This document shows, in pieces, positions 1,399 through 44,030 of a stretch of DNA of 64,000 nt. The position numbers and the translations under genes were made by a program. Source of the stretch: a virus; IMG/VR virus record IMGVR_UViG_3300027754_003462, one strand, 5' to 3'. Under the pieces are notes generated by a model that saw only the letters and a program-made list of their open reading frames with translations, was not told the DNA's origin and searched no databases. Every line of letters starts with the position of its first letter. Position 1 is the stretch's first letter.

Positions 1399-2581
1399 CT
1401 TGTATAGTATACACAGTCCTAGGGCAAAATGCAAGCCTTGCCTGCTCAATTTCTTCCGCTAACTCTGTCAAGACCCCTAGTTGTGCTTGAACAATAGACA
1501 TATTTAATTTTCGATGTGCAGTAAGTTTTGAGATGAACTGGATGCCAGTGTCTCGATGCGTTTGATTGAAAATACTTTTTTGTATCCCCAAAATATATTC
1601 GTGAATTATTGCATTTTGTTTAGTGGTAATGCCGTACTTTAATTTTTCAGCATGTAAAAATTCAATCAATTTATCTTTTTCATGATCTTTGAGTATAGAC
1701 CAATTTAGTCCTTGTGTGTCTGAACTAGTCAATGAACTAATCTGTATGGGTATTAATTTTTTGTTTGCCCAGTCTATTGTTTGGTACACATGACTGATAT
1801 TCAAAATTTGAATTATAAATTTAAAGTACATGCTTGACTTTGGTAAATGTTGTCTAAGTGTATCTACATTGGTAGAAAATTGTTGCCAGGTAGCAGGATA
1901 TCGCATAAAGTCATATGCATCCTTGACTCCGTCTACACTGATGGATATTTCTAAATTGACAATTTGCTTGAGCCTGCTCAACAAGGAAGATGTCAATACA
2001 GATGCATTGGTCACAATCCTACAACCCAATTGCCGCTGTATTATTTTGTCCAGCATTATTAAGTTCTTTTTAAAAATAAAGAATTCGCCCCCGATGAGAC
2101 TTACACTTTCTAAATTTGGCAATTGATCAATTGTGGCCAGTGCAATGTCAGTATTGTCTTGTACTACGACAGAGGTGTCTGATAATCCGGCATTGTTTCT
2201 TTCATTGGCCAAATAGGTACTGGATTTTTCGTCGCACATGTAACAACCAAGATTGCATGTGTTACTGAAAAACACATCTAGTAGTTTAATATCCAGTTTA
2301 TCGCTAGCCCAGGGCTTTTGTAGCAGTTGTTTTCGTATACTGGTAGTGCCAATTTTATCATTTTTTGAACATGCATCGCAACCCGGAACCGGTTCTATGC
2401 CGTTGATTTTGTTGTCACGGAGTTGGGTCATTTCTTCTCCGTGTAAAAAATCTTTCAATGATTCTGATTTGGTTTGAATCCTATATACACATCCTGGTTT
2501 GAATCCTACCTGATTTGTTTTGTAATTTGATTCAATTCTTAATGTGGTAAAAGGTGCTGTACAAAATATCGGGTTGTGCAT
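1373..2581 (-). CDS. Radical SAM protein with N-terminal Cys-containing (Twitch/SPASM-like) domain
   Basis: CNLGCYMC motif, GGE motif, SISVDG, YDFMRYPATW; N-terminal FCTAPF...CDAC. Start moved to MHNPIF, which follows a TAAATA motif. Confidence 0.88.
   Translation of the reverse strand: MHNPIFCTAPFTTLRIESNYKTNQVGFKPGCVYRIQTKSESLKDFLHGEEMTQLRDNKINGIEPVPGCDACSKNDKIGTTSIRKQLLQKPWASDKLDIKLLDVFFSNTCNLGCYMCDEKSSTYLANERNNAGLSDTSVVVQDNTDIALATIDQLPNLESVSLIGGEFFIFKKNLIMLDKIIQRQLGCRIVTNASVLTSSLLSRLKQIVNLEISISVDGVKDAYDFMRYPATWQQFSTNVDTLRQHLPKSSMYFKFIIQILNISHVYQTIDWANKKLIPIQISSLTSSDTQGLNWSILKDHEKDKLIEFLHAEKLKYGITTKQNAIIHEYILGIQKSIFNQTHRDTGIQFISKLTAHRKLNMSIVQAQLGVLTELAEEIEQARLAFCPRTVYTIQDETMHNTD
1406..1434 (-). 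promoter_or_regulatory. Sigma70-type promoter for uvsW, lying inside the 3' end of the radical SAM gene
   Basis: Minus strand reads TTGCAT-17 nt-TATACT with TG before the -10, then 7 nt to the ATG. Confidence 0.6.
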
Positions 2582-2600
2582 AGAAAAATATTTAGTTGTC

Positions 2601-2633
2601 AAAAAGACAGGTACCTTTTTAAGGGTACCTGCC
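2601..2633 (-). terminator. Rho-independent terminator ending the early AAA operon
   Basis: Minus strand GGCAGGTACC-CTTAAAAA-GGTACCTGTC-TTTTT. Confidence 0.8.
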
Positions 2634-2680
2634 ATAAAACCCGGGCCGGAGCCAACCAATGCCCGAGGAAACTTTAAAAG

Positions 2681-2788
2681 TTACTTTGCCACACGCACTA
2701 TCCGAAATCCCATTTGCTTCTGTTCGTCTGCTTCGTCGCGAGTTGCCACAGTAAACAGCAACAAGTCACCATCATAAATTTCGTACAT
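2681..2788 (-). CDS. 35-aa small protein (below the ORF-track cutoff)
   Basis: MYEIYDGDLLLFTVATRDEADEQKQMGFRIVRVAK*; ATG sits 1 nt after the upstream TGA. Confidence 0.7.
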   Translation of the reverse strand: MYEIYDGDLLLFTVATRDEADEQKQMGFRIVRVAK

Positions 2789-2789
2789 G

Positions 2790-2882
2790 TCAATTTCCAA
2801 ACATCAAAATAATAAACGATAAGAGTAGTGCCCAGCCAAGGTGTCCTAACATTAGTAACATTAAGACACCTATCCAAGCCAT
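2790..2882 (-). CDS. 30-aa hydrophobic membrane peptide
   Basis: MAWIGVLMLLMLGHLGWALLLSFIILMFGN*; ATG sits 1 nt after the AAA gene stop and the ORF exactly fills the gap. Confidence 0.65.
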   Translation of the reverse strand: MAWIGVLMLLMLGHLGWALLLSFIILMFGN

Positions 2883-2883
2883 A

Positions 2884-3906
2884 TTAGGCAACCTTCATAC
2901 AAGTTGTCTCTGCAAGGCGTTTCCAATTCAACACTGACATCTTGCGCAAGTCTGCAATCTTAAGAGCCATACGCAAACTCACTTCACGCAAACGGTCCTT
3001 GTTGGTGTGCATGAACTCAATAATGTCGTCTTGCACAGCCTCTTCAAACTCGTAGTCCTGGAACAGCACACCATCTTTGGCAATCTGTTTGATACGCAAC
3101 AAACGGTCACGCATGGTGTCCAGTGTCAAGTCCAGATAGTGACAGCGTGATTGGAGAGCGTCCAAGTGGTCACGTAATTTTTGCGACTTCATCTGATCAA
3201 ACTTAAGGTTGGTAATAAAGATTACTGAGCCTTTGAACTCGAAACGATCTGGGATACCTTCACGGCGCAGGGCACTGGATTCACTCAACCAACTAATGGT
3301 ACGTTTCTTGCCGGAGTCCAATGCACCCTTCAGCAAGTTAAGAGCCACGTCGTCTAGCAAAATGCTATCACAGTCGTCAAACACAATGACACAATTCTCA
3401 TCTGAGTATTTGTACAATGTTTGGAACAAACCAATTGGTGTGGCACTACCTTTAACAACCTCAGCACGGAGACGTTTGCCTGCAAGTTTGTCAAACAAAC
3501 ATGCCTTTTCAATTTCAGTTTCAACGCCGTAACTCTTGCCAACACCCGGAGGGCCGGATACAATCATTGCACGGATGTCACCTGACACCGTGGCTTTGGT
3601 CATCTCTGTCAGGATGTCAAAACGCTCGCGGATACGGTCCATTGCTTGCTCGTCAGTTTCTGCAACAAGGACGGATTTTTCAAAGTGGATGGTGTTGGGT
3701 TGTGTCATGCCGTTAGTGTACTCTATATCAGAAATGTTGTCTACACTAATACGTACCGTATCAGGGCAGTTTGGGAAGGTGCCATTATTTTTCACTGTAA
3801 CATAGTTACCTTTAGCACCAGTTTGGAAACCGTTTACAAGAACGAATTCTTGGTTACGGACGGGTCGGTTGCGGTATGTACCTTTTACAACGCGGATTGC
3901 ACTCAT
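2884..3906 (-). CDS. AAA+ ATPase (early gene)
   Basis: GPPGVGKS Walker A, IVFDDCD Walker B, IFITN sensor, LQSR arginine finger; AGGAG RBS. Confidence 0.88.
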   Translation of the reverse strand: MSAIRVVKGTYRNRPVRNQEFVLVNGFQTGAKGNYVTVKNNGTFPNCPDTVRISVDNISDIEYTNGMTQPNTIHFEKSVLVAETDEQAMDRIRERFDILTEMTKATVSGDIRAMIVSGPPGVGKSYGVETEIEKACLFDKLAGKRLRAEVVKGSATPIGLFQTLYKYSDENCVIVFDDCDSILLDDVALNLLKGALDSGKKRTISWLSESSALRREGIPDRFEFKGSVIFITNLKFDQMKSQKLRDHLDALQSRCHYLDLTLDTMRDRLLRIKQIAKDGVLFQDYEFEEAVQDDIIEFMHTNKDRLREVSLRMALKIADLRKMSVLNWKRLAETTCMKVA

Positions 3907-3951
3907 AGTTGGCTCCTTTTTGTGCGGGTTTATCTTACTGTCTATGTGTAT

Positions 3952-4004
3952 ATTATAGCAAATGATGATTTATTGGTCAAGTACAGCAAAAGTATTACTT
4001 TTGC
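3952..4004 (-). promoter_or_regulatory. Early sigma70 promoter with upstream palindrome
   Basis: TTGACC-17 nt-TATAAT with extended -10 TGn; GCAAAAGTAATACTTTTGC palindrome at 3986-4004. Confidence 0.9.
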
Positions 4005-4216
4005 GTAATTTCATCAACTTTTTGAGTGTATTCTAAACGGCTCAATACCAGTTGGTACATGCAATATACCAAAAGTGTAATACTTCCTACTGACAGTATT
4101 TTAGAGATTTCATCTGCGGTTAAACCTGTTAACAAAAGTTGTACACCAACTGATACGGTACAAATCACAGCAAGAACCCCTGCTGTCTGTAATGCGGCTT
4201 TGAGTTTTAAATTCAT
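3995..4216 (-). CDS. Small two-TM membrane protein (early)
   Basis: 73 aa with two hydrophobic stretches; own promoter and AAGGA RBS. Confidence 0.75.
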   Translation of the reverse strand: MNLKLKAALQTAGVLAVICTVSVGVQLLLTGLTADEISKILSVGSITLLVYCMYQLVLSRLEYTQKVDEITQK

Positions 4217-4242: not shown

Positions 4243-4288
4243 ATTATAGCAAAAGGCCGATTAGTTGTCAATTACAGCAAAAGTATTA
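4243..4288 (-). promoter_or_regulatory. Early sigma70 promoter
   Basis: TTGACA-17 nt-TATAAT perfect consensus; upstream TAATACTTTTGC half-palindrome. Confidence 0.92.
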
Positions 4289-4516
4289 CCGTTGGAAATC
4301 AACCAGTCGCTTGACAAGAATTCCGTGCTCAGCGTCCATTTCCTCGTTAGAAACGTAGAAGTCTGTGGTAGGGTCATAATAACGACCTTCTCGGGGATCG
4401 TAATACAGCACCCGTCCTGATGCATACTTGAATGGACCTTCTAGTCCGGCACGTGGGCCATACTTTTGGCGCATCAGATCTGTTTCAAACTTGTCTGCAA
4501 TAATTCGGTATCCCAT
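4286..4516 (-). CDS. Small hypothetical early protein
   Basis: 76 aa, GLEGPF...GRVLYYDPREGRYYDPTTDFY; own promoter and RBS. Confidence 0.8.
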   Translation of the reverse strand: MGYRIIADKFETDLMRQKYGPRAGLEGPFKYASGRVLYYDPREGRYYDPTTDFYVSNEEMDAEHGILVKRLVDFQR

Positions 4517-4545: not shown

Positions 4546-4597
4546 ATTGTAGCAAAATGGGAATTATTGGTCAATTACACAAAAAGTATTACTTTTT
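4546..4597 (-). promoter_or_regulatory. Early sigma70 promoter with upstream palindrome
   Basis: TTGACC-17 nt-TACAAT; AAAAAGTAATACTTTTT palindrome at 4581-4597. Confidence 0.88.
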
Positions 4598-18134: not shown

Positions 18135-18167
18135 ACAATAAAAACAAGGCCCGTAGGCCTTGTTCAA

Positions 18168-42902: not shown

Positions 42903-44030
42903 TTACCAGGCTTTAAGTATGATCAAGTTCTCAGTACCCCGGGCATTCCAGGGTGTTTCTGTAGTGGTTAGATCCCGGTAGATCTTTCTAGAGGCTGGCT
43001 TGCCTGCGGCCTGTATGGCTCGGACAACATCTGCTGGTTTGCGCACAGTTTTTTGCAGTGTTTCCACAGTACTGTAACCAATAATGCTGTTGTTCTTGAT
43101 GGTAAATGCCTGTGTATGGCTGTCTGCTACCACATGAATCAACTTGCGTTTCTTGGTATCGTACAACCAGGCTTCGGCCTTGTCCACTAGACTTGCGGCT
43201 GGCAGTCCTTTGAGTTTGAGTTCCACAAACTCTGCTGTGTGTTTGAACTTGGCCGCACGTTTCTCTGGGGGTACTGTCCGGACCTTGCGTGGCTTGCGTT
43301 CCACTTTCTTGATCTGAACATAAGCACCGCAGTCGTTGATCACCGCTTCGCAAAACTTTACGCAATTACGCAATTGAATCTTGGTCAGGTACGAGTATGC
43401 TTCCACCAGCAATGGATCCTTGCCCGCCACTGCCTCTTCAAACTCTGCCAGTTTGCGTTTCCAACGATTGGAGATTTCACTGGTCATTTGTGGCGCCACG
43501 TTCATACCACGGATTACCATGATAGGCTTGTAGTCTGCTGACATCTTGGCACCGGCCATCATGAATTCATCAAACATGCCATCCAACTCAGCCGCACACT
43601 CGCCAACTTTTTCTCTCAGGCGATCTTGTATGTTAGGCCGGGCTGGTCCTTCTTGGGCTGGCTCAGCATCCGCCTCAACTGTTTGTTTGCTGGATAAAAT
43701 TTCTTTTAGCAAGTTGTCCAGTTTGATCTGTTCTGTTTCGCTTAACTCTAATCCCACCATCTTCATGCGACATAACCAGCCTGTGGTTAGGCGTATAGCC
43801 GAATCTGGAATGCTTTTTAGTACTCGCACATCTGCCTTGCGATCCTGCGACTCCAAGTAGTTCACAATCATTTCACGAGCATCTTTTTTGCCGTAAAAAT
43901 AGTTGTACCAACTGAATGCTTTGCTCAGGGCACTGATGCGATTTTCTGTGGGTTGTGTTTTCCACGGAGGCTCTCCACCCATGACATTGGTATCAGAACT
44001 ACGGGGGTTCAGCAGTTTAATGGGTTTCAT
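42903..44030 (-). CDS. Hypothetical early protein
   Basis: 375-aa ORF with its own sigma70 promoter and AGGAG RBS. Confidence 0.8.
   Translation of the reverse strand: MKPIKLLNPRSSDTNVMGGEPPWKTQPTENRISALSKAFSWYNYFYGKKDAREMIVNYLESQDRKADVRVLKSIPDSAIRLTTGWLCRMKMVGLELSETEQIKLDNLLKEILSSKQTVEADAEPAQEGPARPNIQDRLREKVGECAAELDGMFDEFMMAGAKMSADYKPIMVIRGMNVAPQMTSEISNRWKRKLAEFEEAVAGKDPLLVEAYSYLTKIQLRNCVKFCEAVINDCGAYVQIKKVERKPRKVRTVPPEKRAAKFKHTAEFVELKLKGLPAASLVDKAEAWLYDTKKRKLIHVVADSHTQAFTIKNNSIIGYSTVETLQKTVRKPADVVRAIQAAGKPASRKIYRDLTTTETPWNARGTENLIILKAW

Follow-up and report, generated by a model that had tools for sequence, protein, structure and literature searches.

In an uncultured giant phage from freshwater, a small minus-strand hairpin near the 3′ end of an early operon displays in its loop a sequence complementary to the ribosome-binding site (RBS) of the AAA-type ATPase gene that would open the same transcript. 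This complementarity is conserved among related phages, it covaries (RBS and 3′ element change together, in about 13 classes and about 120 loci), and it is linked exclusively to the AAA gene. Judged by this comparison of sequences, the conserved interaction between RBS and 3′ element is to be taken as real, with an unusually strong natural covariation, and we think it quite likely that the hairpin is the seed module of a 3′-UTR anti-RBS element that blocks translation of the AAA gene, which would thereby be placed under negative autoregulation.

The DNA analyzed here (the window) is a stretch of 64,000 nt of the IMG/VR record IMGVR_UViG_3300027754_003462. No relative of the locus was found by blastn among 50,697 phage records; the clade is known from metagenomes only. 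The early region on the minus strand carries three near-consensus sigma70 promoters, at 4574, 4271 and 3980, each of them followed by a gene. The one preceding the AAA gene (3952..3980, minus strand; TTGACC, 17 nt, TG-TATAAT) is of the extended -10 type with 11/12 matches and leaves a 5′UTR of about 40 nt; of 126 related loci, 125 have an equivalent promoter no more than 130 nt 5′ of the AAA start codon. The target, i.e., the AAA-gene RBS with its spacer, GGAGCCAACU, occupies 3907..3916 (minus strand) and ends one base before the AUG, its 9-mer GGAGCCAAC (3916-3908) being directly 5′ of the start codon at 3906. The gene proposed to be regulated (2884..3906, minus strand) encodes an AAA-type ATPase of 340 aa with a strong match to phrog_1250 (E = 2e-83), a family of unknown function, and a weak one to Pfam AAA, while a sequence search of the PDB with this protein found no relative. 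Between the gene and the element lie two micro-ORFs (2681..2882, minus strand), one hydrophobic of 30 aa (2882-2790) and another of 35 aa (2788-2681). A weak internal promoter-like site at 2800-2771 (9/12 matches) was rejected, as shuffled sequences score equally well.

The last stop codon (2683-2681) is followed by a 3′UTR of about 80 nt, comprising in succession a small AU hairpin, the hairpin with the complementary loop (hairpin 1), a U-rich linker and the terminator hairpin. Hairpin 1 (2640..2668, minus strand), which a preliminary description had correctly located and read just before the terminator, consists of a 7-bp stem and a 14-nt loop (CCUCGGGC, loop AUUGGUUGGCUCCG, GCCCGGG), and its loop presents the anti-RBS GGUUGGCUCC (2648..2657, minus strand), complementary to GGAGCCAACU. 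As also claimed there, the loop 9-mer GUUGGCUCC (2656-2648) complements GGAGCCAAC at 3916-3908 in all its positions, and counting an adjacent G·U pair the duplex reaches 10 bp. The linker UUUUAU (2634..2639, minus strand) separates hairpin 1 from the intrinsic operon terminator (2600..2633, minus strand), a 10-bp hairpin with a U tail whose stem covaries according to RNAalifold; this U tail overlaps the TTGACA of the next promoter-like site. In most related loci (e.g., L001:5300-5340) the U tail runs straight into TTGAC and then into a promoter-like block, TTGACTT-N-TTGTTGCAATAAGTATATACT, whereas the window (2570-2601) and one relative, L021, have a different sequence there. The window contains one further good minus-strand terminator, at 18144, without such an element, and an Rfam search of the region 2400-4100 (E up to 1) returned no family, the only match being a spurious one to a lncRNA. 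The opposite reading of the loop, as an RBS on the plus strand (GGAGCCAACCAAUG), was rejected because other loci have loop variants that lack the AUG.

Within the window alone the complementarity does not go beyond chance, since the expected count of the 9-mer match is 0.49 and at least two copies occur in 9 of 100 shuffles; the preliminary description had itself cautioned that a 9-nt match can arise by chance. Among 218 candidate starts in the window the AAA RBS is the top-ranked partner of the loop, and cofolding of the 5′UTR with the 3′ element gives a ddG of -14.2 kcal/mol. In the predicted fold of the element the terminal GG and CC of the anti-RBS pair together (4 of its 10 bases are paired), leaving UUGGCU unpaired.

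It is the comparison with related phages that gives weight to the match. Searching with the AAA protein retrieved homologues in hundreds of IMG/VR contigs, and three scans yielded 133 distinct genes of 72-97% identity. In the major class, hereafter class A, to which the window belongs, the RBS GGAGCCAAC is invariant (104 loci), and it is swapped as a block in the other classes. Both sites, the GGAGCCAAC RBS and a single GUUGGCUCC in a loop before the terminator, are kept in 99 of the 99 class-A loci with enough downstream sequence, while the five class-A loci lacking the element end 0-547 nt past the AAA stop. Across 94 distinct class-A elements all 10 positions of GGUUGGCUCC are at least 98% conserved and the 5′ part of the loop varies. 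The stem of hairpin 1 exists in several variants (CCCGGGC/GCCCGGG, CCUGGGC/GCCCAGG, CCUAGGC/GCCUAGG, CCCCGGGG/CCCCGGG and GGAUCGC/GCGAUCC), and by RNAalifold 10 of 14 pairs show compensatory changes; class A often has an AGUUU 5′ of hairpin 1. It is relative to the terminator that the anti-RBS keeps a fixed position, and not relative to the AAA stop, which lies 5 to 2084 nt away among the relatives; the micro-ORFs are not a conserved part of the system.

A scan with a 15-mer pattern of the loop gave 61 matches in hairpin context, the other 19 being GC-rich chance matches, and every hairpin-context match with more than 810 nt of upstream sequence has an AAA gene on the same strand: the element is restricted to the vicinity of that gene. 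Since in 116 of 122 loci the AAA gene and the element are not separated by a strong terminator, and given the upstream promoter in 125 of 126, a fold-back in cis would be possible almost everywhere; promoter and terminator signals indicate that both sites are on one transcript. Some loci carry additional motifs of a similar kind. In six of them (L195, L196, L200, L209, L214 and L064) a second anti-SD-like motif, CUCCUUUUU, is found 5′ of hairpin 1 and complements AAAAAGGAG of the same RBS, and in the group of L072 and L112 a small anti-SD-like hairpin, UAACC-CUCCAA-GGUUA, immediately precedes hairpin 1.

Cultured phages with a distant relative of the AAA gene (Pseudomonas phage PA5oct and Vibrio phages; 36-40% identity) lack a convincing element, and in Vibrio phages D506 and 1.244.A nothing was found. 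In PA5oct an 8-nt stretch, AUGCUACU, located 20 nt past the stop of the AAA homologue, complements AGUAGCAU of the RBS region; it was rejected as an element, being part of a local hairpin and at chance level. The PA5oct record carries RNA-seq-based ncRNA annotations near the AAA homologue.

The preliminary description had proposed to look in relatives for compensatory changes between loop and RBS, and these are abundant. Some 12 RBS classes besides A have their own exact complement, of 7-11 nt, just 5′ of the terminator. Thus, the RBS GGGCUAGUAA of class B is matched by the 3′ element UUACUAGCCC, and GGGCUAGAAA of class B′ by UUUCUAGCCC; class C combines GGAGCGAAA with UUUCGCUCC, class D GGAGUUGGC with GCCAACUCC, and class E (CA)GGAGCUAA(C) with (G)UUAGCUCC(UG); GGAGCAA faces UUGCUCC in class F, UGGAGCAACA faces UGUUGCUCCA in class G, ACGACACGGA faces UCCGUGUUGU in class H, and AGGAGCCAACC faces GGUUGGCUCCU in class A+, the RBSs of classes I and J being likewise matched by their own 3′ elements. 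Relative to class A, class D has four base pairs flipped through transitions, and one locus (L356) that retains the loop has an RBS reading GGAGCCAAU, i.e., a G·U intermediate. When the 13 classes are placed on the AAA protein tree at least 12 changes are needed (17 by FastTree). A single locus, L176, has an RBS with no recognizable partner.

The energies follow the same pattern. Cognate duplexes average -17.4 kcal/mol against -10.6 +/- 3.3 for pairings between non-cognate classes, and the cognate partner is the best one for 12 of 16 RBS types, classes A and E cross-reacting in silico. Each RBS paired with the 60 nt preceding its own terminator gives a median of -21.9, as compared with -12.1 +/- 3.1 for shuffled sequence, values that are conservative because the first terminator was located automatically and match-blind, to define the 3′ region without bias, and in about 15 loci hairpin 1 or coding hairpins were taken instead. 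By a rough estimate, two stretches of 21 and 40 nt would share a 9-nt match with p ~0.002 per class. As a control, the RBS spacer of the neighboring early gene (the homologues of 4286-4516) drifts freely in the same loci in which the loop stays constant.

Conserved in this way are the complementarity and its closeness to the terminator, with no single fold. The anti-RBS lies within a large loop in classes A, A+, Ap, B, B′ and D, is single-stranded and directly 5′ of a hairpin in classes C, E, F, G, I and J, and in class H precedes the terminator hairpin itself, no other hairpin being present; this alternation between loop and single strand according to class argues for selection on the complementarity and not on one particular structure. 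In all classes except H a U-rich linker (a tract of 3-5 U) follows and then the terminator hairpin with its U tail, and in classes F, G, H and I the element begins only 5-15 nt past the AAA stop. The succession of seed, hairpin, U-rich linker and terminator is the layout of a typical 3′UTR-derived sRNA.

This architecture, together with the GGAGCC motif common at early RBSs of the clade, could speak for a wider role, namely an sRNA that shuts off early translation in trans at many RBSs. The preliminary description had put forward such a general shut-off, with two targets in addition to the AAA gene, and both pairings are literally there: the loop pairs over 9 nt, with three G·U pairs, to the RBS of 4286-4516 (GGGGCUGAC), and over 6 nt to that of 42903-44030. 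Neither holds as a target, however. The spacers of both RBSs vary freely among homologues while the loop is fixed, those of 42903-44030 keeping only the generic GGAGCC, and the duplex energies (-14.3 and -15.3 kcal/mol, respectively) are only about 2 sd off a background of -8.9 +/- 3.2. With both extra targets failing, a general shut-off of early translation is not supported, and we consider it improbable. The homologues of 42903-44030 (L259-L338) have the RBS AAGGAGCC, in a few cases GGAGTC, with a free spacer in the roughly two-thirds of the loci that could be read; in the remaining ones the start was not captured, their protein match beginning only at residue 2-4. The early genes of the clade may prefer GGAGCC as an extended SD. 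Two further points favor the wider role: the complementarity is kept in four loci despite a terminator-plus-promoter cassette, described below, and an early gene of 131 aa upstream of the AAA gene keeps a GGAGCCA[AC] RBS in 15 of 16 loci. This gene, located immediately 5′ of the AAA gene and equipped with a promoter of its own (L048:3556-3951 and 15 other loci, all of class A), has GGAGCCAAC, GGAGCCAAA or GGAGCCAC as RBS in these 15 loci and GGAGTCAAA in the other one, and from its sequence is a possible second target of the same loop. On the other side, only three RBS-located copies of the 9-mer exist in a 97%-complete relative, the 349-kb IMG/VR contig of L048. That contig contains GGAGCCAAC 19 times, against 0 for the reversed control; these copies were rejected as so many targets, as most are in-frame Gly-Ala-Asn codons in repetitive fibre-like genes at about 91-113 kb.

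Other explanations concern the pairing itself. T4 RegB cuts GGAG in early Shine-Dalgarno (SD) sequences, and the duplex could be genuine but serve the mRNA, by stabilizing it through contact of its 5′ and 3′ ends, by shielding GGAG from a RegB-like nuclease of the phage, which is T4-like, or by providing an RNase III site. The covariation fits this equally well, and in the hbs mRNA of B. subtilis a 5′/3′-UTR interaction controls RNase access (PMC5737220). Nevertheless, the duplex spans the SD and the spacer to the AUG in every class, so that an mRNA protected in this manner would be untranslatable too, and by itself it is too short for a classical RNase III substrate, for which reasons we give this explanation little probability. 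In formal terms, two complementary sites on the same strand are also an inverted repeat of the DNA, and the two copies could be a pair of protein-binding or recombination sites that never form an RNA duplex, but this is very unlikely: without exception, the position of one copy is exactly that of the SD-AUG spacer and the other immediately precedes an intrinsic terminator of the same strand, the length (7-11 nt) and the register differ by class, the second copy is found either within a loop or flanking a hairpin, homologous exchange would need longer repeats, and the passage from class A to class D through four transitions is compatible with G·U intermediates. At the duplex edges, the comparison of RNA with DNA counted 8 G·U as against 10 A·C mismatches, which speaks for neither. 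Finally, hairpin 1 could be the first half of an ordinary tandem terminator, its loop resembling an anti-SD by chance, as would suit the chance-level 9-mer match in the window and the UUUUAU that follows the stem. We find this hardly credible in view of about 13 independent matched classes and of a loop 10-mer invariant across 94 distinct elements whose 5′ loop part is variable. As a terminator, hairpin 1 would combine a 7-bp stem and a 14-nt loop with only 4 U after it, and the scan offers just a 5-bp alternative hairpin.

The reading that we favor, repression of the AAA gene by its own 3′ element, would proceed as follows. The early transcript would start at the sigma70 promoter at 3980, placing the AAA RBS about 30 nt from the 5′ end, and would end at the terminator (2633-2600), with GGUUGGCUCC displayed just before it. 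Ribosomes would load while transcription of the operon continues, and the site would close once the 3′ end is made. Pairing would probably nucleate at the exposed UUGGCU, the class-specific part, and then extend over the SD, so that GGUUGGCUCC would be paired with the Shine-Dalgarno and with the whole spacer up to the AUG; since the duplex would cover all of this, the simplest effect would be exclusion of the 30S subunit, and the expected outcome is that the AAA ATPase limits its own synthesis. It is from the geometry of the duplex alone that we infer repression rather than protection, and the kinetics, the processing and the balance between cis and trans action are likewise only suggested by sequence. 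The fold-back element or 3′UTR-derived RNA of the preliminary description is thus upheld as regards its pairing with the AAA RBS, which the covariation backs, with repression as the probable consequence. In predictions, weak points of this off-switch are the shortness of the duplex (7-11 bp) and the loop of the major class, partly closed in its fold.

Action in cis on the own mRNA probably contributes, and there is about an even chance that a 3′ fragment, protected by the terminator, also acts in trans on other copies. Support for the latter comes from the sRNA-like body of the element, from the second early gene with a GGAGCCA[AC] RBS in a subset of loci, and from the four loci in which the element still matches although a terminator-promoter-gene cassette stands between it and the AAA gene. 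This cassette (L022:4633-4720, L028, L013 and L008) is placed just past the AAA stop and is near-identical in class-A and class-B backgrounds; it comprises a terminator (UAACCCUGU-CUAGC-ACAGGGUUA-UUUUU), a promoter (TTGACT...TAAACT) and a gene starting MSYTSVDGWYDH, and it looks like a mobile moron exchanged between lineages. A more speculative extension, which we hold to be rather unlikely, is that of a phage-encoded, trans-acting 3′UTR-derived RNA for which the roughly 13 RBS/anti-RBS classes would be address codes, each lineage silencing its own AAA copy. Were this true, close co-infecting phages would cross-silence or escape each other, in the manner of P1/P7 c4 heteroimmunity, virulent giant phages would have their first described case of a specificity system based on an sRNA, and it would offer a ready-made, partly orthogonal set of translational switches.

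The regulation of bacterial genes by their 3′UTRs rests on a handful of examples, and we know of no long-range pairing between an RBS and a 3′UTR backed by a dozen natural compensatory switches. Here, the mutate-and-compensate experiment has already been done by evolution, in an abundant clade of uncultured freshwater giant phages. For phage biology, the element is a candidate RNA-only means of limiting an early gene product, besides the protein factors RegA and RegB; for RNA biology, it would be a clean system in which to address the question of cis or trans action of such elements, and for synthetic biology, a family of short matched RBS/anti-RBS pairs. Furthermore, the AAA ATPase (phrog_1250), whose function is unknown, would be marked as a protein of tightly controlled dose in these phages.

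A search of the literature found no description of such a 3′-end anti-RBS element in phages. A phage parallel is the c4 antisense RNA of immI in phages P1 and P7, from the work of Citron and Schuster in 1990, where RNA and target RBS reportedly come from one transcription unit and the loops are said to pair with the RBS region, matched changes between related phages giving specificity groups. The specificity classes defined here by matched changes are alike, but the element lies downstream of its target; c4 is reported to be upstream, to undergo tRNA-like processing and to control an antirepressor in temperate phages.

In B. subtilis, aSD-like sequences hundreds of nucleotides downstream have been described to form a duplex in cis with the RBS, which prevents initiation and favors decay; this is a general constraint, such sequences being depleted from genes (PMC12697547). 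Unlike such sequences, that of the phages is positively conserved and gene-specific.

The preliminary description had compared the element with hok, an analogy that turns out to be loose. What is shared with hok/Sok is that the two ends of one mRNA pair over a long range and a translationally inert state results, the latter as a proposal for the phage. In hok, the partner of fbi is tac, a separate box (ucb) masks the SD, and 3′ trimming removes fbi and activates the mRNA, the system including a toxin and the antisense RNA Sok (PMC9841398). The 3′ element of the phage, in contrast, would pair directly with the SD and the spacer, with no separate masking box, and its anti-RBS sits inside a protective terminator hairpin, 5′ of the 10 bp of the latter, from where 3′ trimming could not remove it. 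Moreover, the phage system has neither toxin nor antisense RNA: the partner gene is that of an ATPase, and the micro-ORFs are not conserved.

A closer resemblance is found with OppZ and CarZ of Vibrio cholerae, which are cut from the 3′ ends of operons and repress RBSs in these same operons (PMC7398697). There as here, the element is situated between the last stop codon and the Rho-independent terminator of the operon, and its seed is complementary to the RBS of a gene of that operon; in addition, the hairpin, the U-rich stretch and the U tail of the phage element resemble the body of an Hfq-type sRNA. OppZ and CarZ are released by RNase E, bound by Hfq and act in trans, OppZ also triggering Rho termination (PMC7398697), and their seed is a free 5′ end, unlike that of the major phage class, located in a hairpin loop. 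In the phage, hints of such a release and Hfq binding are limited to the AGUUU frequent 5′ of the class-A hairpin 1, the U-rich linker and the U tail.

Finally, in the icaR mRNA of Staphylococcus aureus a 3′UTR anti-SD motif, UCCCCUG, pairs with the SD of its own mRNA and blocks formation of the initiation complex (PMC3868564). The phage element has in common with it that a motif of the 3′UTR complements the SD at the other end of the mRNA and, as proposed here from sequence, the same molecular event. Nevertheless, the icaR 3′UTR is long (it was picked from a class of more than 100 nt) and its cleavage by RNase III has been demonstrated (PMC3868564), whereas that of the phage measures about 80 nt, and there is no sequence relationship between the two. 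The phage seed runs 5-6 nt past the SD into the gene-specific spacer, exists in many covarying specificity classes, and is displayed close to the terminator, either by a loop or at the side of a hairpin. By analogy, the phage element would thus work like the icaR pairing and the autoregulation by OppZ and CarZ, and less like hok.
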